A stretch of 60,187 nucleotides of DNA from Candidatus Eiseniibacteriota bacterium (GCA_031431875.1 JANPEF010000040.1:1-60187), one strand, 5' to 3'; counted from the first letter of the stretch, positions 50,055-60,186 are shown. Translations and numbers: made by a program. The notes: generated from the sequence alone by a model not told the origin.

Positions 50055-50561
50055 ATGAAGACTCGCCCCTGGATCCTCGCGCTGAGCCTTGTCCTGCTCG
50101 CCGCCCCGCTGGCCGCGCCCCGCGTGCACGCCTGCGAGGAAGAGGGCAGCGACGCCGACCTCGTGCTTGACGAAACCGGCGATTCACCGCTCATCGTCCG
50201 GGAAGGCGCCTGGCTCGACTCGGAACTCGATTCGTCGTGGACCCCGCTCGAGCCCGGGGCCTTCCTGTTGCGGCTTCACCGTCCGACCGGCGCGTGGGTC
50301 GTCGAGACATGGTACTACCGCCTGCCGTCGGACCCGACGCGCGTGCTCACCCACGACGAGCTGGTCGAGCGGCGTGCCGGGCGCGGCGTCGAGCCGTGGG
50401 ACGAGCCGACGATGGTCGTCGACCAGGTGATCGTCTACGCCCAGGGCGAGGCGCAGGCGCTGCGGCTCGCTCGCGCCATGCGACCGGCGCAGGTGCCCGC
50501 TCGCGTGGTCGAGGCGGTGCTGGAGCGCGCGCTCCTCGAGGCCAACGAAGAAGGCTGCTGA
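50055..50561 (+). CDS. Secreted hypothetical protein
   Basis: GGAGGAG RBS; signal peptide MKTRPWILALSLVLLAAPLAAPRVHA. Confidence 0.75.
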   Translation: MKTRPWILALSLVLLAAPLAAPRVHACEEEGSDADLVLDETGDSPLIVREGAWLDSELDSSWTPLEPGAFLLRLHRPTGAWVVETWYYRLPSDPTRVLTHDELVERRAGRGVEPWDEPTMVVDQVIVYAQGEAQALRLARAMRPAQVPARVVEAVLERALLEANEEGC

Positions 50562-50935
50562 CGGGCCGCCCAAACGTGCAAGCCGCCACGCCTGCCCGCG
50601 CAGCCTGCGCGATCCTCGGAGGAGTCGCGCGTCGCCCCCGCTCTGCCCCGCCCCGGACTCGGGAGTTGCGCATTGCCCGGCGGCGGCGATCCCCCAGGGC
50701 CGCCGCGCGAGGAAGTCGTGGAAACCACGTCCCGCGCGCCACATCGGAGCGCCATGCACGATGCGACACGATTGCGGATCGCGTCCCGTGGCCGCTGCGC
50801 CGATGTGATCGTGGTCGCCGCGATGCAGCACGCCTGACGCCCCGAGTCCGGCACGTCCGATGCACACTCCTTGATCGTTCCGGCTGCCCCTCGACGCGCT
50901 GCGGGCCGACCGGGAGGATCAGGAGGACGTGCCCC

Positions 50936-53002
50936 ATGGAACGGATTCGCAACGCTGATCGTCGTCGGTTCACGCCGACACTCGCCGCGCTCGCCACCAC
51001 GACCGCAATCCTCACCGGGCTGGCTCCGCCGGTCGCGCACGCGCAGTTCGGCGGCGCGCCGGCGAGCTACACGTTCCGCGTCGTCGACCAGAACGGGCGT
51101 CCGCTCGACGGTTCGATGGTCCGCATCGAAGGAACGACCGGCGACATGAACACGCCCGCCACGGTCGACCTGGTGGCCGGTCCGCAGCTGGTGACCATCG
51201 AGCCCGCGGTCCTTGGAGCGATGCTGCCTGACGGAGCCCTGCGCCCGAGCGGGGCGAACGGCCTGTCGCGGAACGAATTCCTGTTCCTCAATCCCGGCGG
51301 CGGCGACGTCGTCATCGTCTGGCGCACGGCCGACGTCGCGATCGGGGTCGTCGACCAGGATGGCGCTGCGATCGCCGGTGCGCGCTGGGGCTTTGCCGGA
51401 GACGGTGCGATGTACGCGCCAGGCATGCTCACGCTACCGTTGACCGACGAGTCGGCCCACGTGGGAATGGGCGGCCCGTCGCTGGCGGGCTGGGTGTTCG
51501 ACGTACGCGCCGCGTTCGATGGTGCGCCGGTCGACCTGGTCCGCAGCGAAGCGCGCGAAGCCCTCGATGGCCTGACTGCGCTGGACTTCGAATGGCGCCA
51601 GACCGCCTGCACCATGGGCGTCGTCGATGCGATCGGCAATCCGATCCGCGGCGCGACCTGGGCGATGCTGGGCCACACGTTCGGGGCCGGCGACGCGATC
51701 GCGCTGCCCACGACGGATGAGGCGTTGTATGGCAACCTGGCTGGCACCCTCACATCCGGCTTCACCGTACATCTGTTCACCAACTCGAGCTTCGGCAGCG
51801 GCGACGTGATGTTCGAAGCGGACGCGTCCGGCCTGCTGTCCCCCGACTTCGCCGACGTGAACGGCGGAGCCTTCGGCCTGCGTTGTGGCATCACTGCGTT
51901 CCCGCCCCTGACGACCGGCTCGCTTGCCGTCTCCGTCACCGCGGACGGCGCGGCGTTCGCCGGCGCGCAGGTCTCGGTGGTGGACGCGAACAACGCGAGC
52001 AGCACGCAGGTCACGGGCGCCGGGGGCTTCTTCGAGCTCGGCAACATGCCGCAGGGGCCGCTCGCGCTCACCCTGACCGTGCCCGCCGGCTACCACGCGG
52101 TGGACCCGGCGAGCGCTTCGCTGGCGACCTCGATCGTGGCGGGCGAGATGCGCAGCGTCGCGTTCGCGATGGCAGCCGACGTCGTCGAACCGCCGCCGCC
52201 GCCGCCGATCGTCAACAATCCCGAGTCGTACAACTACTGGCGGCGCGAGGTCACGTCCGCGCTGCGCGGCAGCGGCCGCCGCGACGAGAACCCCCAGGAC
52301 ATGGCGGCGATCTTCCCGCAGGCGATCTTCTCCGGCTTCGCCCAGCATGCGACCGATCCGGTGCGCGTCGAGGGCGTCACGCAGCTCGATCCCGACGGCA
52401 CGGGCCCGAAGGACGCGCGCGGCCTGACGCTGGCCGACATGGACGCGACCCTCGACCCGGGCGGTAACAACGCCCTGCACCAGGCGAAGCGCGAACTTCT
52501 CGTCGTGCTGTTGAACGTGGTGAGCGGACGCCTGTCGCTGAACCTGGTGGTCGACGCCTCGGGCCGCACGCTCGCCGAGGAGATCCGTCGGATCGCCGTG
52601 ATGATCAACGACGGCCTGCCGGCAAACGACGCGATCGCCCGCACTGAAGCCGAGCACATCAACTCCGGCAAGGCGGGTCAGCGCATTCCGGTCCGGACGG
52701 TCCAACCCCACGTCGAGGACGTGGCCGAGGAGTTCGGCGCCGGCACCCTGGATGCGATCGCCCTGGCGACGTTGCCCGCCGCCGGCAGCCTGCGCATCGC
52801 GTTCACGCTAGCCGAGGCGCAGCGCGTGACGCTCGACGTGTACGACGCAAGCGGTCGTCGCCAGACGCGCCTCTACGCGGGCGACGCCCCGGCGGGCACG
52901 ACCGAGCTGACGTGGAATGCGGGTGGGCGGCGCGGAGTCTACTTCGCGCGCCTGGTCTCGCTGCAGGGAGTGAAGACGGCGAAGCTGGTGGCGGCTCGTT
53001 AG
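50936..53002 (+). CDS. Secreted protein with carboxypeptidase-regulatory-like repeats and C-terminal FlgD-Ig-like domain
   Basis: AGGAGG RBS, signal peptide; repeats VVDQNGRPL/VVDQDGAAI/VVDAIGNPI; C-terminal LDVYDASGR..LTWN..GVYFARL. Confidence 0.82.
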   Translation: MERIRNADRRRFTPTLAALATTTAILTGLAPPVAHAQFGGAPASYTFRVVDQNGRPLDGSMVRIEGTTGDMNTPATVDLVAGPQLVTIEPAVLGAMLPDGALRPSGANGLSRNEFLFLNPGGGDVVIVWRTADVAIGVVDQDGAAIAGARWGFAGDGAMYAPGMLTLPLTDESAHVGMGGPSLAGWVFDVRAAFDGAPVDLVRSEAREALDGLTALDFEWRQTACTMGVVDAIGNPIRGATWAMLGHTFGAGDAIALPTTDEALYGNLAGTLTSGFTVHLFTNSSFGSGDVMFEADASGLLSPDFADVNGGAFGLRCGITAFPPLTTGSLAVSVTADGAAFAGAQVSVVDANNASSTQVTGAGGFFELGNMPQGPLALTLTVPAGYHAVDPASASLATSIVAGEMRSVAFAMAADVVEPPPPPPIVNNPESYNYWRREVTSALRGSGRRDENPQDMAAIFPQAIFSGFAQHATDPVRVEGVTQLDPDGTGPKDARGLTLADMDATLDPGGNNALHQAKRELLVVLLNVVSGRLSLNLVVDASGRTLAEEIRRIAVMINDGLPANDAIARTEAEHINSGKAGQRIPVRTVQPHVEDVAEEFGAGTLDAIALATLPAAGSLRIAFTLAEAQRVTLDVYDASGRRQTRLYAGDAPAGTTELTWNAGGRRGVYFARLVSLQGVKTAKLVAAR

Positions 53003-53106: not shown

Positions 53107-54246
53107 CTAGTCCGCCCCGCGGGTCTCGGCAGCCAGCACGGGGGCGTCGGTCACGACCGCTGCATGCACGGCCGGCGTGGCCGTCCAGCGATCGATCAGG
53201 CGCCGCGTCTCCGAGAAGCGCACCGAGTTCGACGGAGCGCCGAGGACGACCGAAATCACGTCGCGCGAGCGGGTCGAGACCCAGGTCGCGAGGCAGTAGC
53301 CCGCCTCGCTGATGAAGCCGGTCTTGCCACCGCGCACGTCGAACACGCCGTAGCGGCACAGGCGGTTCGTGTTCACCAGGTGGTAATCCTTCTTCGAGCT
53401 GCGGAACGTGTAGTCGGGCAGCGTCGTGATGTGCGAGATCATCGGCTCACCGCTGGCGCGCTTGAGGATCTGCGCGTACTCGGTCGCGGTCGAGACGTTC
53501 TGCTCGGAGAGTCCCGTGAACTCGACGAAGCGCGTCTGGTGCAGGCCCATGACCTGCGCCTTGCGGTTCATGCGGGCGAGAAACTCCTCGGGCGGAAGGT
53601 CCGAGTTGCGCACCAGCGAGCGCGTCGCCGCGTTGTCCGACGACAGCAGGGCCAGGTGAAGCAGGTCGCGCATGGTGACGATCTCGCCGGAGCGCAGCCG
53701 CGTGTGCCCGGAGCCGGCCAGGTCCTCGCGCGAGACCATCGCCCGGCGCGTCAGATCCGGCTTCATCTCGAGGTACACCATCATCGTCATGAGCTTGGTG
53801 AGGCTCGCGATCGGCATCGCCTGGCCCGAGTTCTTGTCGAACAGGACCTCGCCGGTCTTCGCATCGAGGATGATCGCCGCACGGGCGTTGACGCCGCCGC
53901 TGTAGGAGATCCGGCGCCGGCCCTTCTTGACCACGCGCTTCTTCGACTTGAGCGTCGACTTCTTGACCGGTTTCTTGACCGACTTCTTGCTGGTCGTCGA
54001 CTTCTTGAGGGTGCTCTTGCGGGCAGAAGACTTCTTGGCCGTGGTTTTCTTCGCCGGGGTCTTCTTCGCCGTGGTCGCAGCGGAGCTCGTTCCCGCCGCC
54101 TCGGCGACGGGGGCGAACTCGGCCGGAAGAAGCAGCGCAGCGGACAGGATCAGGCCGGCCAGCGCCCGGAAACGGCGCGAGGCGGCCGCCGGTCGAGCGA
54201 GAGACACTGAGGTGGCCTGGACAGCAACCGGGGCCGAATAGAGCAC
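53107..54246 (-). CDS. S11 D-Ala-D-Ala endopeptidase/carboxypeptidase (PBP7-like) with Lys-rich N-terminal region
   Basis: ASLTK, SDN, KTG motifs; GGAGGGAGG RBS before GTG 54246; signal peptide. Confidence 0.88.
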   Translation of the reverse strand: MLYSAPVAVQATSVSLARPAAASRRFRALAGLILSAALLLPAEFAPVAEAAGTSSAATTAKKTPAKKTTAKKSSARKSTLKKSTTSKKSVKKPVKKSTLKSKKRVVKKGRRRISYSGGVNARAAIILDAKTGEVLFDKNSGQAMPIASLTKLMTMMVYLEMKPDLTRRAMVSREDLAGSGHTRLRSGEIVTMRDLLHLALLSSDNAATRSLVRNSDLPPEEFLARMNRKAQVMGLHQTRFVEFTGLSEQNVSTATEYAQILKRASGEPMISHITTLPDYTFRSSKKDYHLVNTNRLCRYGVFDVRGGKTGFISEAGYCLATWVSTRSRDVISVVLGAPSNSVRFSETRRLIDRWTATPAVHAAVVTDAPVLAAETRGAD

Positions 54247-54678
54247 GGGACCTCCCTCCAGGGGGTCGAGATACGTCGTCAATCGCCACGCGGACAAGGG
54301 GATCGGGCGCCGGCGCAAAGACGCCGCAGCCACCCGTCCTCGAATGCGAGGCGAGTTCCTCTCACGAGACATCTCTTCCGTGAGCAATCCCCGGGCCACA
54401 GCAAGGCTCCGCAGCCGTCGTCGGAAACTTCCGACGGGTGGCCGGAGATTGATCTCGTATCCGGGCGGGCAGCCGATCCGTCCACCGCTGGAGGATTGCC
54501 CGGGCGCGATGGAGCAAGCTTGCACCCCGGGGTGCCCTTCGGTCAACCCAGGTTGTGCCCTGACGATTGGGGGCGAGGCAATTCCTGCGGCTCTGCCCGT
54601 GGATCGGCCCCGTAAACCCTTGCGCGGCAAGGGGCGTTTCTCGCCAAGTGCCTCGCACACAATCGTGCGGGCACGACC

Positions 54679-54709
54679 AAAACGAAAAAGGGAGCCATCG
54701 TGGCTCCCT
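54679..54709 (-). terminator. Intrinsic terminator of the sigma54-driven operon
   Basis: AGGGAGCCA-CGA-TGGCTCCCT followed by TTTTCGTTTT on minus strand. Confidence 0.8.
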
Positions 54710-54719
54710 CTCGTCGTTC

Positions 54720-54836
54720 TGCGTTGCGTCACGGCCCCACGCCTGTTGCCGAGCGTATCAGCCTGTGCTGCGTTGCGACCCCCGTCGCGCCTGCTGCTTG
54801 TGCCACTTGTGCTGCTTGCGCTGCGTCACGGCCCCC
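54720..54836 (-). repeat. Three degenerate direct repeats, period 48-49 nt
   Basis: Plus strand TGCGTTGCGTCACGGCCCC (54720), TGCGTTGCGACCCCC (54769), TGCGCTGCGTCACGGCCCCC (54817). Confidence 0.6.
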
Positions 54837-54858
54837 TTGCTGCCGCCGGTCTCTTGGG

Positions 54859-55440
54859 TCAGGACTCCCTCGAGTCGACGTCGTCCGGATCCAGGACGAT
54901 CCGAACCTGCTCGAGACGTTGGGCCAGTCCGGACGACCAGCCTTGATCTCGCACTGCCCGCCGGAGCGATGACTCGCTGCCGGCGATCAACACACCTTTC
55001 CAGAGCTGGCTCGTGCCAGCGGACGCACCCTCTGCATCGTCCGTGACCCTCGAAGTCCGGGTCAGGAGGTCGAGCAGGAGAACCTGCGTCTCGACACCCA
55101 GCGTCTCGATCTCGTCGAGAAAGAGACTTCCGCCTTCGAGCCGGTTCAGGAGTTGCGGGGAGTCGCCTCCTGAAGTCCCGACGAGCCAGCCTTGGAGCGC
55201 TCGCTGGAGAAGGCCCTCGTCGGTCGAGCAATCGATCCGAAGGAAGGGACCGTCCGGTCCGCGCTGCTCCCGGTGCAGTGCGCGGGCGACGCTCTCGCGT
55301 TCGCTCTCGCTCTTCCCGATCACCAGGGCTGCAGCCGAAGCCGCCCTGCCTGCGATCGGGTCGATCGCACCCATCCCGTCGTCTCCGCCCGAAGTGCTCG
55401 ACTCTCGACGTTCTCTCACCGGAGAACCTCTCGACGTCAT
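54859..55440 (-). CDS. Stand-alone degenerate sigma54-activator AAA domain protein
   Basis: LVIGKSESERESVARALH..PFLRIDC..GGSLFLDEIETL..QVLLL; no GAFTGA, no HTH; alternative ATG at 55374. Confidence 0.75.
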   Translation of the reverse strand: MTSRGSPVRERRESSTSGGDDGMGAIDPIAGRAASAAALVIGKSESERESVARALHREQRGPDGPFLRIDCSTDEGLLQRALQGWLVGTSGGDSPQLLNRLEGGSLFLDEIETLGVETQVLLLDLLTRTSRVTDDAEGASAGTSQLWKGVLIAGSESSLRRAVRDQGWSSGLAQRLEQVRIVLDPDDVDSRES

Positions 55441-55477
55441 CCCTCTCCGACCCCGCGTCGGGAGGTGCGGCCGCGTC

Positions 55478-55654
55478 CTAGAACGCTGCCTGGGCGATCT
55501 GGTGGCTCCACTGAGCCGCCGTGATCATGTCGTCGAAGTTCATGTCAGGTGGATTCACGTTTCCTCCAGGCTGATTCCAGTCGGCCATCGACGGGCTTGC
55601 CTGCAGCAACGCCAGAACCGCCAAAACCGCGACGACATTGCGACGAGACTTCAT
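55478..55654 (-). CDS. 58-aa secreted peptide (not in ORF track)
   Basis: AGGGAGG RBS 6 nt before ATG; MKSRRNVVAVLAVLALLQASPSMA signal then DWNQPGGNVNPPDMNFDDMITAAQWSHQIAQAAF. Confidence 0.8.
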   Translation of the reverse strand: MKSRRNVVAVLAVLALLQASPSMADWNQPGGNVNPPDMNFDDMITAAQWSHQIAQAAF

Positions 55655-55718
55655 GGGCTACCTCCCTGTTGCTTTTCCCGAGTTGCATCGGCCGGACGGC
55701 CGGGCACTTCGGTGGAGG

Positions 55719-55760
55719 TAGCGCCTCTCGTGCCAATCTCTATTGCGAGGAGAGTGCCAA
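55719..55760 (-). promoter_or_regulatory. Two tandem sigma54 -24/-12 promoters
   Basis: TTGGCACTCTCCTCGCAA (55760-43) and TTGGCACGAGAGGCGCTA (55736-19), both GG-N10-GC. Confidence 0.75.
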
Positions 55761-55799
55761 TCGGGGGCTCGGAACAATCTGATCTTCTAATCGTTTGAA

Positions 55800-55812
55800 A
55801 TACAATAAGTTA
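55800..55812 (+). promoter_or_regulatory. IHF-like site
   Basis: ATACAATAAGTTA (CAA-N4-TTA core) in an AT-rich patch between the enhancer and promoters. Confidence 0.45.
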
Positions 55813-55858
55813 AGTGCTTAGTCCTTGACGCGATCAACTGGTCTTGAGGCGAGTTGGT

Positions 55859-55966
55859 TGCGCAGGTTTCTGCGCGATTCTATGGGTCAAACCCGCCAAG
55901 TGCCATTGCAACTTGCAATTCGCAATGCGTAGATACTTGCGCGAAAATTGCGCAGAAACCTACGCT
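55859..55966. promoter_or_regulatory. Three palindromic enhancer-like sites TGCGCA-N6-TGCGCA
   Basis: TGCGCAGGTTTCTGCGCG (55859), TGCGTAGATACTTGCGCG (55926), TGCGCAGAAACCTACGCT (55949). Confidence 0.7.
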
Positions 55967-58900
55967 TTCGGACGGAGGATCCGGGGGCGAGCCGCCTTCT
56001 CGGGGCGAACCGTCGCTTTGTCTGCGGGGGGTTCAGTCTCGAGGTTCAGCTTGCCGATTCGGTAGCGGAGGGTCGGTTCGGCAAGTCCGACCATGGCTGC
56101 GGCCCGGCGCTGATTGCCGCCGGCGCTCTGTAGGGCCGCTCGTATCCAGCGGCGCTCAACGTCTTCGAGAGCAACTTTAAGGTCGGCCGGTGGACCGACA
56201 GCCTCCCCGAGAGCGAACTCCTCGCCTCTGCGCCTGGGGCGGGAGGGTCGATGCGGCTCGAGATCGCTCGGCAGCACGATTGGCTCGAGTGCCGGTCCGG
56301 CCGACATGACCAAGCTCCGCTCGATGTAATTCTGCAACTCACGCACGTTCCCTGGCCAGTTGCTCCGCAGGAGTGTGGTCTGGAACTCCGCGGACATGCG
56401 CGGAACCGATAGATGCCCGTCTTCGCACGCACGCTCGAGGAAGTGCCGTGCGAGCAGAGGGATGTCTGCTTTCCGATCTCTCAGCGGCGGCAGGTGGATC
56501 GGGAGCCCCTGGATGCGGAAGTAGAGATCCTCGCGAAACTTACCCTCCCGGATGAGCTCGTCGAGATCGCGGTGCGTGGCCGTGATCAAGCGCACGTCGA
56601 CGCGGACGACCTCCGACCCTCCGATGCGGGTGAACTCGCGCTCCTGAAGCACGCGCAGTAGCTTCACTTGAAGGGCTGGCGGCATGTCGCCGATCTCGTC
56701 GAGGAAGAGCGTTCCGCCGTTCGCCCGCTCGAAGTATCCAGGGCGACCCCTGACGCCGGTGGCGACCCGGTCTTCGATTCCGAACAGTTCCGACTCGATC
56801 AGGTCGGCCGGCAAGGCGGCGCAGTTCAGGGAGAGAAACGGTCGGTCGGCGCGCGGCGACGCGAAGTGAATGGTCTTCGCAACCAGATCCTTGCCTGTTC
56901 CCGATTCCCCGGTGATAAGTACAGTGGCCCGCGACGGAGCCATACGTTCGATCTCGTAGAGGACCCGTTCAATCTCGGCGCTCTGGCCAACGATGCTCGT
57001 GGCGCTGAACTTCCCGCCCACTTCGCGGCGCAAACTTGCGCTCTCGCCCAGGGCGCGGTCTCGCGCCAGCCGGAGCTCTTCGGTGAGGCGAGCATTGCGG
57101 ATCGCCGCCGCGACGACGTTGGCAAACGCCTCCACGAGTTCGAGCTGGCGTTCATCGAACTGGCCCGCTGCCGCGCGGTTCTCGAGGTAGATCGTGCCGA
57201 TGCCCTCGTCCCCGATGCGAAGTGGCGTGCACAGTATCGAACGCATAGACAGGTCGAGGACACTCAACGTCGAGACGAGGCGCGGATCGCTCGCCGCGTC
57301 ATCGGAGTGAAAGGTCTCGCCGCTCGCGGTGACCTTGCGGATCACGGTGCGGCTGATATCGAGCGCCGAACTTCTTGCTTCCTCGTCCACCTGCCCGAAC
57401 TGGGCTACCGGTCGAGGGTCTCCCTGTCCGTCGTGGAGCAGTATGTAGCCACGCTGTGCTCCCATCCTCTCGCAAACGAGGGACAGCGCCCGCGGGAGGA
57501 GCAGCGTTGGGTCGACCGCGGAGTTGAGCAGCTCGCTGACGCGGTAGAGCGTATCGCGCTCGGTTGCTTCAATCTGTCCCGGTGCACGGTCCGGCGCCAA
57601 CCCCAGTTCGAGCAGGAACTCGGCGATTCTTCGCGTGAATGAGCGAAGGCCAAGGCTTCGGGCCAGGCCGAACGACTCCTGCAAGAGCCATGATCCCGAC
57701 TCCCCGGCACCACGTTGGACAAGGGCTACGCCCATGAGCGACCCCAGTTCGAGCGCAGCTGTCCGATGATCCATCTTCGAATCGAGCTCGAGAGCACGGC
57801 GCACCCGCTGCATCGCCGAGGGGAGTTGGTTCCGCCCCAATTCCTGCCAAGCGGCGATCTCCTCTCTCCGGGCCTCGGGGAGGCGATCCTCGATCCGCAC
57901 CTTCGAGAGGATTGTGCTCGCTTGATCGGCAACGACTCCGAGGGCGCTCAGGCGATGGAGCTCCGGAAGGACGATTTCCGCAACCCCGAGATCGGCAGGC
58001 CGCAAATCGACGGCCATCTCGAAGTCCTCGAGGGCGGCCTTGTGTCGCGACGTTCGGGCGAGAGTGCGTCCTCGCATCGCCGCAGCGAGCGCGCGGTACA
58101 CCGGCAGTGACGTGCCGCGGCGTGGGTCGAGGAGCGCGCTCCACCGGCGATACGCCGCACGGAGTCGGCCTTCCAAGCGCAGCCGCTCACCGACATAGAT
58201 CTCGTGATGTACACGCGCATGCTGAAAGTCGATCGAGGGGAGCCATGCGCGCTCGATGATCTGCAGTCGCCTGACCTCGGGGAGTCGACCCCGGCGAAGC
58301 GCCGCCGGGACACACGTTGCAAGCTCGCTCAGGAGCCTGTGTGGGTCGCGCCGCCGGCGCGCCAGCTCGATTGCACGTTGTGTTGTGCGCTCGAAGTCCG
58401 ACCAGGCGCCCATGTTTGCGTAGCTCGACGCGAGGTTTCCGAGATCGTGGCTCACATCAAGCGTGCTGCCGGCCTGTTCGTGACGGGCGACAGCATCCTT
58501 GTGCAGCGCGATCGCTTCCTCGTAGTTCCCTTCGAGTCGCGCGATCAAACCGAGATTCCCCGAGATGGTCGCATGAAGGCCGAGTGGATCCTCCGCGCTC
58601 ACAAGGGCGCGCGCTTCATCCAGCATTGCTCGCCCGCGCTCCTGCTGGCCTTCGAGATACAACTGGATCCCGTAGCGGTTGCGCACACGCGCCTGTTGAT
58701 CGGCGTCGTCGGGCGGGGCGGTTGCGAGCGCGAGCTCGTACTCGTGCAGGGACTCCATGCCGCGGCCGAGGAGACGGACGGCGTTGGCGCGCTGGAAGTG
58801 CCAGTTCATCGTCTCGATCCCGACCGGTGCCAAGTGACCCGCGGCATCGTCGAGCGCGACGAGCGCGCGCCGCACGTCGCCCATCTCGACAAGCAATGCG

Positions 58901-60186
58901 CTGCGTCGCAGCACAAGCCGCAGGCGGCGATCTGCGGCCAGCTCACTAGTCTCACCGAGGAATCTCTCGAGCAATCCAGCCGCATTCCGGAATCTCCCAC
59001 GATCGGCTTCCCGCTCCGCGAGTTCTGGAAGGAGTTCGCTGTCGCGCGGCTGGTCCGTGAGAATGGGGATCAGCCGGTCCAGAGCGGCCTGCCGGTCGGC
59101 AAGAGAGTCCTCGGCGGTCGTACGGACTGCGGCGAGCAGCCGATCGCGGGCCGAGCCCGTATCGCCACGCGCGAGATCAAGCTCCCCTCGGAGGCGAAGT
59201 GCGCGTGCAGACTTCGGTGTCGGGTCGAGGGAGGTCGCGAGTCGTTCAAGCGTCGCCGGAGACGCCGTTCGAAGGAGCGCAGCCCGGACCCGGTCGGCAG
59301 ATCCGGGGGAATGCAGGCTGAGTCGATTGCCGTTCCAGTGAATCGCGTCGAGCCACCAGAGTTCAGCTTCGAGGTCGGTCGGGACCGTCCCTTGATCGAT
59401 CTCGAACGCGAGCAGGAGCAGCACGGCTCGCGCCTCAGGAGAAAGCAACTCGAGCCTCTCGGCGAAGTCGTCCCCATCGGACCGCTCGAGCGCGTCGAGT
59501 CCTGCCGGTTCATCCAGGTACATGCCACCGGGCGCCATCCGCAAGGCATCCGCGCGAAGTAGCAAGTCGAGAGCGCGGTGCACGGGCCCTGGGGTATGCC
59601 CGGCCTCTCGAAGTACGAAATCGACGATGCGCGGCGTGACGGTCCCACCGAGGCGCGAAACAAGCAGGCTCCGAAGGTCGACCGCGGAGAGATCACCGAC
59701 TTCGACCACCTGTCTTCGCGGATCCTCTGGGAGCGCGAGGAGGCTCGCACTCCACGATTCGCCGGGGCCCGACGCGTCGACGGTCGCGACCAGTGCTAGT
59801 GGCGCCCGGAGAAGTGCAAGGTCCAACCCGGCCAGTCCCACGCCTGGCCAGGAATCCACATCATCGAGGACGATCAGGGCTCCTGCCGTAGCCTGAGGAG
59901 AGCCAAGTGTCGCCCCGAGGCGATCGATCTCCGCCTGTGGGGAGGGCGTCTCCGCGTCGAGCCACACGACACCATGCCCCGCAAGCTCCGCCTCGACCGC
60001 GATCTCCCGCGCCAGCCGGGTGCGTCCGCTGCCTCGCCGACCGCGCACGACCGCGAGCTGGATGTGACCGCAGAAGAGGTGCGCGCGCAGCGTCTCGAGC
60101 GCGGCCGCGCGGCCGACGAACGTGCCGCGGGCGCCGACGCCCGGGGCGCCGGCGGGGCCGGCGTGCGTCTCGGCCAGCGTGCGCAG
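55960..60186 (-). CDS. Giant sigma54-dependent activator: STAND-like NTPase, TPR array, GAF, AAA+, Fis-HTH (5' partial)
   Basis: Frame open to the window edge (FVGR..GRRGSGRT); helical repeats (ISGNLGLIARLEGNYEEA); GAF (RSILCTPL..IYLEN); GESGTGKD, ESELFG..RVATGV, LFLDEIG, FREDLYFR, WPGNVRELQN, HTH. Confidence 0.9.
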   Translation of the reverse strand: MRTLAETHAGPAGAPGVGARGTFVGRAAALETLRAHLFCGHIQLAVVRGRRGSGRTRLAREIAVEAELAGHGVVWLDAETPSPQAEIDRLGATLGSPQATAGALIVLDDVDSWPGVGLAGLDLALLRAPLALVATVDASGPGESWSASLLALPEDPRRQVVEVGDLSAVDLRSLLVSRLGGTVTPRIVDFVLREAGHTPGPVHRALDLLLRADALRMAPGGMYLDEPAGLDALERSDGDDFAERLELLSPEARAVLLLLAFEIDQGTVPTDLEAELWWLDAIHWNGNRLSLHSPGSADRVRAALLRTASPATLERLATSLDPTPKSARALRLRGELDLARGDTGSARDRLLAAVRTTAEDSLADRQAALDRLIPILTDQPRDSELLPELAEREADRGRFRNAAGLLERFLGETSELAADRRLRLVLRRSALLVEMGDVRRALVALDDAAGHLAPVGIETMNWHFQRANAVRLLGRGMESLHEYELALATAPPDDADQQARVRNRYGIQLYLEGQQERGRAMLDEARALVSAEDPLGLHATISGNLGLIARLEGNYEEAIALHKDAVARHEQAGSTLDVSHDLGNLASSYANMGAWSDFERTTQRAIELARRRRDPHRLLSELATCVPAALRRGRLPEVRRLQIIERAWLPSIDFQHARVHHEIYVGERLRLEGRLRAAYRRWSALLDPRRGTSLPVYRALAAAMRGRTLARTSRHKAALEDFEMAVDLRPADLGVAEIVLPELHRLSALGVVADQASTILSKVRIEDRLPEARREEIAAWQELGRNQLPSAMQRVRRALELDSKMDHRTAALELGSLMGVALVQRGAGESGSWLLQESFGLARSLGLRSFTRRIAEFLLELGLAPDRAPGQIEATERDTLYRVSELLNSAVDPTLLLPRALSLVCERMGAQRGYILLHDGQGDPRPVAQFGQVDEEARSSALDISRTVIRKVTASGETFHSDDAASDPRLVSTLSVLDLSMRSILCTPLRIGDEGIGTIYLENRAAAGQFDERQLELVEAFANVVAAAIRNARLTEELRLARDRALGESASLRREVGGKFSATSIVGQSAEIERVLYEIERMAPSRATVLITGESGTGKDLVAKTIHFASPRADRPFLSLNCAALPADLIESELFGIEDRVATGVRGRPGYFERANGGTLFLDEIGDMPPALQVKLLRVLQEREFTRIGGSEVVRVDVRLITATHRDLDELIREGKFREDLYFRIQGLPIHLPPLRDRKADIPLLARHFLERACEDGHLSVPRMSAEFQTTLLRSNWPGNVRELQNYIERSLVMSAGPALEPIVLPSDLEPHRPSRPRRRGEEFALGEAVGPPADLKVALEDVERRWIRAALQSAGGNQRRAAAMVGLAEPTLRYRIGKLNLETEPPADKATVRPEKAARPRILRPKA

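Follow-up and report, generated by a model that had tools for sequence, protein, structure and literature searches.

The stretch of DNA analysed here, termed the window, is the 60,187-nucleotide contig JANPEF010000040.1:1-60187 of a Candidatus Eiseniibacteriota bacterium (GCA_031431875.1). It is the entire contig C40 of a 3.75-Mb metagenome-assembled genome with 70% GC and 98% completeness. Near one end, its minus strand carries a gene for a giant sigma54 activator, followed by an enhancer and promoter region and by an operon of two genes, one for a short peptide precursor with a predicted secretion signal and one for a degenerate activator domain, the mini-activator or mini (Table 1). The sequencing runs that contain most of the stretch are from freshwater sediment, and no RNA run was listed among them. 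The genome has eight Omp85-family matches, one rpoN, and three HU/IHF-family genes; judged by its Omp85 genes, the host is diderm (two-membrane).

Table 1. Positions of the features of the cassette, counted from the first nucleotide of the window (SD, Shine-Dalgarno; aa, amino acids)
Feature	Position	Strand	Basis or remark
Giant activator, allele A	55960-60186	(-)	1,408-aa frame, open at contig end; Pfam, orthologues
Distal enhancer, 17-bp TGCGCA-N5-TGCGCA-type palindrome	55938-55954	.	~193 nt upstream of P1
Conserved core adjoining enhancer, repeated TTGCA half-sites	55904-55931	.	near-invariant in 4/4 aligned loci
Second enhancer-like site, GCGCA pair	55859-55876	.	sequence conservation
AT-rich patch with IHF-like CAA-N4-TTA core	55788-55822	.	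spacing fixed in 4 aligned loci
Sigma54 promoter motif P1, TGGCAC-N5-TCGC	55745-55759	(-)	-24/-12 motif match
Sigma54 promoter motif P2, 24 nt after P1	55721-55735	(-)	family-1 feature
Leader: anti-SD arm 55714-55722, inner hairpin, SD 55657-55665	55657-55722	(-)	RNAalifold
58-aa precursor with ribosome-binding site	55478-55654	(-)	predicted Sec signal aa 1-24
Exchanged block, precursor codons ~9-34	55553-55628	(-)	mismatch clustering vs G002
Mini-activator, degenerate Sigma54_activat	54859-55440	(-)	E 4e-13; alpha/beta AAA+ subdomain only
Three GGGGYCGY-type repeats in non-coding trailer	54720-54848	(-)	1-3 copies in 8/8 family-1 loci
Intrinsic terminator-like hairpin and U-run closing the operon	54679-54710	(-)	8/8 family-1 loci

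Conservation of the cassette

The regulatory cassette is real and conserved. The starting set comprises the 30 best activator loci out of 61 related genomes. Addition of 5 JGI loci and 40 further regions, half of which were picked via mini matches, yields 72 analysable loci and 63 distinct peptide loci. An open reading frame (ORF) of 58-119 aa that is signal-like and led by a ribosome-binding site (RBS) lies 210-310 nt after the activator stop in 30/30 activator-selected loci, and a full mini is found within ~1.45 kb in 24 of these 30. The mini lies slightly farther away in G016 and G042, and one more of the 30 loci ends at a contig edge. In the enlarged set, the RBS and signal-peptide ORF are present just downstream in 68/72 loci, with one more found by eye (L159). 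L160 has neither a peptide nor a readable VATGV loop, and L166 and L177 contain other or cut activators. The promoter is matched by position weight matrix (PWM) in 54 of the 63 distinct peptide loci.

The controls have nearly none of these features. Among 80 generic sigma54-activator loci from a genome contig scan, 70 had sufficient downstream DNA; RBS plus signal ORF occurred in 4/70, ORF plus promoter in 1/70, and the mini in 0/70. A signal-peptide ORF, pilin-like, follows only one of the 17 other sigma54 activators of the same genome. No cassette was present at 14 TPR loci in five genomes of other phyla, and the kinase-STAND-TPR-type sigma54 proteins of one Latescibacterota and one Myxococcota genome have GAFTGA loops and no cassette. 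The main prediction of a preliminary description of the window, that the small signal-peptide gene and the sigma54 promoter recur downstream of homologous activators, is borne out; its interpretation as a whole is partly supported. The loci are related by kinship and not independent, so the linkage counts represent inheritance of a linked unit and not multiple separate origins.

No description of the cassette was found in the literature, with most subscription journals outside the search. The supplements of the STAND survey PMC13581612 and of sigma54 surveys could list the kinase-STAND-TPR-GAF-sigma54 architecture. The cassette is apparently new to the literature.

Many family-3 loci (L036:4533-4916, L037:9781-10155, L042, L045, L046, and L049) have, after the mini, a receiver-like protein of 120-130 aa that gave no NCBIfam match, and other family-3 loci have a PAS or receiver protein at this place. 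A third gene, which varies between loci, may thus belong to the operon. L039 (G016), L041 (G042), and L044 (G013) have extra genes between the peptide and the mini, or replacing the mini, and these would come under the cassette promoter.

Activator, control region and operon products

The activator: The preliminary description had recognised a STAND-like/TPR/GAF/AAA+/helix-turn-helix (HTH) protein of more than 1400 aa. Pfam confirms the domains, with matches to TPR (below cut-off), GAF, Sigma54_activat (E 1e-63), AAA lid, and HTH_8, and a weak AAA_16/ATPase_2 match at the start of the frame. That description missed that the gene is 5'-truncated by the contig end and that an N-terminal kinase precedes these domains, of which the window has only the end; the allelic exchange and the anti-SD switch described below also escaped it. 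The full-length protein is ~1,680 aa and consists of Ser/Thr kinase, STAND, TPR, GAF, sigma54 AAA+, and HTH; orthologues of ~1,670-1,710 aa have an identical layout. In the window, the kinase end is followed by a STAND-like P-loop, a winged-helix (WH)/arm region, a TPR solenoid (aa ~326-872), GAF (893-1029), sigma54 AAA+ (1065-1318), and Fis HTH (1340-1379). The protein scores below every NCBIfam cut-off shown. The P-loop region is a putative STAND-like NTPase by its motifs: Walker A is GxxGxGK in many orthologues, has Lys replaced by Arg in the window, and is degenerate in family 1, the Walker B DD is conserved among orthologues, and the homologue P0003 has an AAA_16 match.

The TPR region is modelled as an all-helical 547-aa solenoid of ~29 helices (predicted local distance difference test 93.5). 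Foldseek finds generic TPR proteins for this model, with no RRNPP receptor among the matches listed. The sensor is hypervariable, with 9-31% identity to orthologues in the TPR region versus 45-78% in AAA. The AAA+ domain keeps intact Walker A, Walker B, and arginine (R) fingers, and its sigma54-contact loop is VATGV, not GAFTGA, as in most orthologues, which have VATGV-type loops. The other activators of the genome with a readable loop have GAFT/GSFT types. A strict DNA pattern for VATGV, which does not prove absence, matched 1/79 other-family genomes, 20/41 family-18 genomes being excluded. Contigs C35, C28, and C149 of the genome carry three more TPR-containing sigma54 activators with frames of 835-1,063 aa, and none has a downstream signal-peptide ORF under the identical rule. 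In family 3, the 3' ends of the activator genes (L034, L040, L041, L044, and L049) have enhancer-like repeats within the last codons, which seem to dictate the Arg-rich tail of the activator.

The control region: The distal enhancer lies at -192 to -195 from P1 in 9/9 family-1-type loci, and its PWM gives its two top scores in the genome to the window site and to its allele on contig C165. The adjoining TTGCA core is also visible in L055-L059. The second enhancer-like site retains its downstream half and has lost its upstream half in L004 and L059. Three palindromic sites had been described originally, one of them overlapping the activator stop. Two are conserved in relatives; the third (55835-55856) is not conserved in L002 or L004 and was rejected as a regulatory site, as was its look-alike on C153, which is in apparent coding sequence without a promoter motif. 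The 17-bp site does not overlap the stop, and only an inverted-repeat arm (55946-55965) does so. The AT-rich patch noted earlier is upheld by the fixed spacing of its core, which we take to be IHF-like from the IHF consensus.

The two sigma54 promoters that had been proposed are both -24/-12 motifs; the minus strand of the 60-kb window has only 4 matches of this kind, these two included. P1 has TCGC instead of TTGC as its -12 element. The tandem P1/P2 pair is present in L001-L004, L052, and L055-L059, and family-15 loci keep the -24 box and have an altered -12 box. It is very probable that the HTH binds the TGCGCA palindromes, that the IHF-like patch is where the DNA bends, and that sigma54 initiates transcription from P1/P2. 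We strongly infer that the activator drives expression of the adjacent two-gene operon.

The leader: The anti-SD arm lies within the melting region of P2, whose bases -13 to -1 are predicted to pair with the SD of the peptide gene. The predicted unpaired fraction of the SD in the window is 0.20 with the arm versus 0.65 from the expected +1 of P2. In folding, SD accessibility rises without the arm in 9/9 family-1-type loci. Mean accessibility for 54 loci is 0.35 with the arm and 0.44 without it; 22 of them show a clear rise, whereas many family-3 loci show little or no effect. Pairing of each arm is stronger with the SD region of its own locus (-12.8 kcal/mol) than with those of other loci (-9.9 kcal/mol), with a permutation p of 2e-4 that is inflated by kinship. 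Since the anti-SD lies in the P2 melting region, only the P2 transcript would free the ribosome site of the peptide. This suggests that read-through and P1 transcripts would be translationally silent for the peptide, which would come mainly from the P2 transcript.

The peptide precursor: The 58-aa gene of the preliminary description stands as an ORF with an RBS and a predicted signal. By hydropathy rules, its start has a basic N-region, a hydrophobic core, and an AxA-type site. The predicted mature peptide has 34 aa and comprises a variable acidic Pro/Gly N-terminal segment and a more conserved amphipathic C-terminal stretch. Over the 63 distinct loci the precursors are 58-119 aa long, and many from family 3 exceed 100. 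Pro occurs within the first 8 mature residues in 56/62 loci. Gln is the first mature residue in 48/62, and an AxA-Q site is found in 9/43 other secreted-like proteins. The occurrence of glutaminyl cyclase PF05096 does not follow that of Gln-starting peptides (0/2 family-3 genomes). The precursor has no Pfam or NCBIfam match, and nothing beyond scores of 0.80 came from ESM Atlas. When the TPR region (an alignment of 43 rows) and the 34-aa mature peptide (14 rows) were co-folded without controls, the score was 0.00 and no answer resulted. Opp/Dpp-type binding proteins are present in 4/5 genomes checked, including that of the window.

The mini-activator: The degenerate activator domain reported at first is a Sigma54_activat ORF with GTG 55419 as its likely start, judged by RBS conservation. 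The mini model matches the AAA+ domains of FleQ, NtrC1, and PspF over ~155 columns and stops where the alpha/beta subdomain stops; lid, HTH, and sensor are absent. None of the 22 aligned members retains the Walker A lysine, loop 1, or either R-finger, and the Walker B glutamate varies among them. Comparison with L056 and L058 gives nonsynonymous divergence (dN) of 0.06-0.07, synonymous divergence (dS) of 0.18-0.26, and dN/dS of ~0.28-0.35, which indicates purifying selection on the mini. It occurs in 64/206 genomes of the phylum, in four families, with one match in 62 and two in 2. Full-length minis form at least 127 clusters at 50% identity with E<=1e-30, and nearly all stand alone. Long proteins in the mini search were rejected as fusions, being ordinary multi-AAA activators. 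P0023, P0082, and P0110-P0114 have two or three tandem sigma54 AAA+ domains per chain and are unrelated to the mini family.

These data bear on the reading of the locus as an ordinary or decayed one, in which a large sigma54 regulator would stand beside a pseudogene and a small secreted protein that has nothing to do with it, the divergence of the locus being due to random gene transfer. The absence of the mini from some loci and the kinase-STAND-TPR-sigma54 proteins that occur without a cassette elsewhere (L190, L191) agree with it. The purifying selection on a mini that is full-length and stand-alone in so many clusters, linkage far above the controls, and the conservation of promoter, enhancer, anti-SD, and terminator largely refute it, and it is very improbable.

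In an AAA+ ring, a subunit that lacks lid and finger would stop ring growth or block hydrolysis. On account of this geometry a brake role is preferred for the mini, and it is judged slightly more probable than not that the mini caps or poisons the activator ring. A FleT-like helper role is rather unlikely. FleT is expressed under FleQ/RpoN2 control and co-activates in hetero-oligomers, according to PMC11999139.

Allelic exchange of the sensor and the peptide

Contig C165 has an activator copy, allele B, that is 73% identical to allele A of the window. The two share 86 identical nt at the kinase end, where the contig of the window ends, and 119 identical nt at the promoter and the start of the peptide gene. 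C165 overlaps contig C146 by 141 bases (the overlap of the assembler), and allele B read through C146/C165 encodes 1,675 aa, with a Ser/Thr kinase that has the Gly-loop, HxDxKxxN, and DFG. Between the shared flanks, dS is 0.8-2.5 from STAND to HTH (saturated). Across the sensor half the two proteins are 49-71% identical, and across GAF, AAA, and HTH 86-90%; for TPR alone the value is 66-71%, versus 88-90% for GAF/AAA. The dN/dS ratio is 0.04-0.39 across the domains, and positive selection is not supported, the ratio being <0.4 in every domain. Run X1, possibly the source sample, has the downstream flank as one contig with a depth of 15.4 and two activator paths of ~7-10 each (depths from contigs only, summed). 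Such depths are expected if a single locus has two alleles; a tandem duplication whose ends were collapsed in assembly is a less simple alternative. The X1 contigs are without cover at 55503, which was not used.

G002 is 98% identical upstream of the activator gene, yet it has a third sensor allele, whose WH region is 55% identical to allele B and 48% to allele A. G001 has a fourth sensor type and P0001 a fifth. The peptide gene has an exchanged block of 76 nt, which contains 26 of the 30 mismatches to G002 within 55450-55875 (425 nt) and ends in the first mature residues of the peptide. Six of the first ten mature residues differ from G002, the C-terminal 24 differ at one, and two amino-acid changes fall in the signal part of the block. 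In comparison with L056 and L058, the first 15 mature codons are saturated, while the mini has a dS of 0.18-0.26. Contig 27 of run X7 (2,465 nt, from another study) aligns on both sides of the peptide block with a gap at 55539-55628 and has B-like variants near the end of the activator. The edges of the block are also where the G001 contig begins and C165 ends. The sensor and the start of the peptide thus form two islands of old, exchangeable sequence within a common backbone, like pherotype loci. Their joint exchange among near-identical genomes fits a receptor-ligand pairing and would be compatible with it.

The 3' end and the neighbouring genes: The repeats and terminator of the preliminary description are both retained. 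The GGGGYCGY-type repeats are the sole cluster of this motif in the genome (29 matches in total), and the repeat trailer has no Rfam match near threshold. The hairpin is kept with stem changes in 8/8 family-1 loci. Beyond it, 54641-54680 and 54551-54583 belong to a short dispersed palindromic repeat, similar to repetitive extragenic palindromic (REP) elements, with about ten further copies in the genome (C119, C85, C43, C10, C49, C35, and C40:198-220). The gene at 53107-54336 (-) encodes a D-Ala-D-Ala peptidase S11, whose N-terminal linker is rich in Lys and resembles histones, and is a frequent downstream neighbour of the cassette. A non-coding block upstream of it, 54380-54420 (-), is conserved in 7/8 family-1 loci and lies downstream of a TTGAC-type promoter-like site; L059 ends before the block. 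The block may serve the peptidase gene as a structured leader, and it has no Rfam match near threshold. The gene at 50237-53002 (+) converges on the peptidase gene and encodes a large protein that looks secreted and has a weak FlgD-Ig match at its C-terminus.

Proposed circuit, alternatives and known systems

The kinase-STAND-TPR-GAF sigma54 activator would switch on the adjacent operon of peptide and mini, the exported peptide would return as an allele-specific ligand of the TPR sensor, and the lid-less pseudo-ATPase mini would be a feedback brake. A returning ligand is the best single account of why the two genes stay adjacent, why the N-terminus of the peptide is patterned, why sensor and peptide are polymorphic together, and why translation would be so tightly gated. 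A circuit that resembles RRNPP systems without being one, in which a self-encoded peptide returns as ligand of the activator, is judged nearly as probable as all other readings together. The route, drawn by analogy, is evenly balanced between right and wrong. The precursor would be exported by Sec and its N-terminal D/G-W-x-x-P (or Q-x-x-x-P-x-G-G) segment clipped from the C-terminal stretch; the clipped segment would re-enter via an Opp/Dpp transporter and lift a MalT-type STAND autoinhibition. The STAND domains would then oligomerise, which would bring the AAA+ ring together and place the kinase domains side by side. No enhancer target other than this operon was found, so the outward output is likely the kinase. 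The mini would dock by its alpha/beta domain and, offering neither lid nor R-finger, cap or poison the ring.

Several observations weigh against this circuit. STAND-TPR sensors detect sugars and phage proteins too. Order-wide co-divergence of TPR and peptide, measured by mirror-tree partial Mantel in 12 tests, is not significant (partial r 0.135, p 0.056, 31 loci; r 0.036 with 38 loci); the only low p-values, 0.022 and 0.004, are for STAND versus the C-terminal part of the peptide. The locus is a mosaic, as G002 combines the allele-A spacer with another peptide. Among close alleles, only the window has a full TPR region and its own peptide on one haplotype, and the sensor-peptide pairing is therefore read from co-occurring polymorphism. 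No mini was found beside the activator in G008, G013, and G015 (3/30 loci), and G120 has the cassette and no SBP_bac_5 match. In families 1 and 15 the C-terminal stretch of the peptide has a transmembrane (TM)-like hydropathy of up to 2.2, though not in the window (0.18), which suggests a possible tether. The enhancer PWM reveals no regulon past the operon in the genome: its 109 weak matches include none at the 18.6-24.7 of true sites outside this locus, and no second promoter class was found. The VATGV loop is without the phenylalanine reported critical for sigma54 activation in PMC3162934 and PMC7175178. Function with sigma54 is presumed for an activator with this loop.

An alternative is an NLR-like danger sensor, for example of a phage or predator protein, with the small protein as effector or membrane-tethered surface tag; sensor and peptide would then diversify separately and travel together through linkage. 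Deep allelic polymorphism is typical of immune receptors too, STAND families sense phage proteins (PMC13581612), and the TM-like stretch or Arg-rich tail of the peptide, the frequent peptidase neighbour, and the mirror-tree result are in line with such a role. The locus is however fixed and single-copy, not a patchy defence island, PADLOC matches only generic kinase and AAA models, and the operon has no toxic effector. An exchanged block centred on the first mature residues, with a common C-terminal stretch, is not predicted for a free effector. A danger sensor is judged rather unlikely.

A cell-autonomous export or envelope gauge is less probable still. The precursor or a fragment would act on the TPR region inside the producer; Sec export would remove it and envelope stress accumulate it, which is feedback and not communication. 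Re-import across two membranes would be unnecessary, a simplification for a genome with Omp85 genes and for G120 with its missing SBP_bac_5, and the tight translational gating, the tiny regulon, and the signal codons in the swapped block would be accounted for. A private gauge gives no reason for several ancient alleles in one population, and most of the amino-acid changes in the block relative to G002 lie beyond the predicted cleavage site, with 6 among the first ten mature residues and 2 in the signal.

The returning-ligand circuit resembles several known systems in part. Like RRNPP(A) systems (Rap-Phr, NprR-NprX, PlcR-PapR, AimR-AimP), the cassette has a cytoplasmic TPR protein adjoining a small Sec-type precursor, and apparent allele groups. 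It differs in its receptor of ~1,680 aa with kinase, STAND, GAF, and sigma54 AAA+ domains (250-500 aa in RRNPP), its diderm host (Gram-positive Bacillota in RRNPP), its variable part at the N-terminus of the mature peptide, its sigma54 enhancer output, and its extra pseudo-ATPase. PMC10075063 describes a Sec-secreted propeptide of 10-100 aa, a receptor of ~250-500 aa with TPRs, and adjacent genes. In RRNPP systems the mature peptide is re-imported and bound by the TPRs. Four of the five points of the signature hold wholly or partly for the cassette: propeptide size, receptor TPRs, and gene adjacency agree, and a Sec signal is predicted for the propeptide. Receptor size does not agree, nor does the host.

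MalT/AfsR-type STAND proteins share the STAND core, arm, and TPR sensor before an activation module, and the autoinhibition model (PMC6468293). The cassette is different in its output of sigma54 AAA+ with Fis HTH plus an N-terminal kinase, in the degenerate STAND Walker A of family 1, and in its gene-encoded candidate ligand. In Cereibacter (Rhodobacter) sphaeroides, FleQ transcribes via sigma54 a paralogous AAA+ protein without a DNA-binding domain, FleT, which joins it in hetero-oligomers (PMC11999139). The mini is likened to FleT from its sequence: it has no sensor and no DNA-binding domain, and control by its partner at a sigma54 promoter is presumed. FleT is a co-activator that shifts promoter class, whereas the mini additionally lacks the lid, loop 1, Walker A lysine, and R-fingers. 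The GAF-AAA+-HTH half, the enhancer 100-200 bp upstream, and the IHF-like site are as in NifA/NorR/FhlA-type activators, from which the VATGV loop and ~1,150 extra N-terminal residues set the activator apart. AAA+ motifs, an enhancer with a -24/-12 promoter, and rpoN are all present, as in other sigma54 enhancer-binding systems, and the GAFTGA loop is absent.

The agr and comQXP loci are likewise laid out as cassettes. As in these pherotype loci, divergent sensor and peptide segments lie between conserved flanks and coexist among close kin; the cassette differs in having neither a membrane histidine kinase nor a dedicated processing enzyme. ComQXPA pherotypes are described in PMC4408185. In Avs/NLR antiphage systems the STAND sensor carries a toxic effector or is coupled to one; no effector domain was found in the cassette by Pfam, NCBIfam, or PADLOC, and the kinase could in principle serve as one.

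Three features matter independently of the peptide as a ligand. The lid-less pseudo-ATPases form a family that is possibly a new control of AAA+ activators, a loop other than GAFTGA is conserved together with -12 boxes that are non-canonical, and the promoter contains a predicted anti-SD switch. The natural allele pairs and the compact cassette make the system directly testable in a laboratory host. To our knowledge, intracellular peptide signalling has been described almost solely from Gram-positive Bacillota. As a tentative and rather doubtful extension, the cassette may be a third peptide-communication architecture, in which a diderm NLR-like STAND-TPR receptor would lead to sigma54 transcription and kinase signalling, tuned by a pseudo-ATPase, insulated by an anti-SD, and with ancient dialects in one sediment population. 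If true, this conserved, allele-diversified diderm version would widen quorum and kin sensing and tie it to the evolution of STAND receptors.

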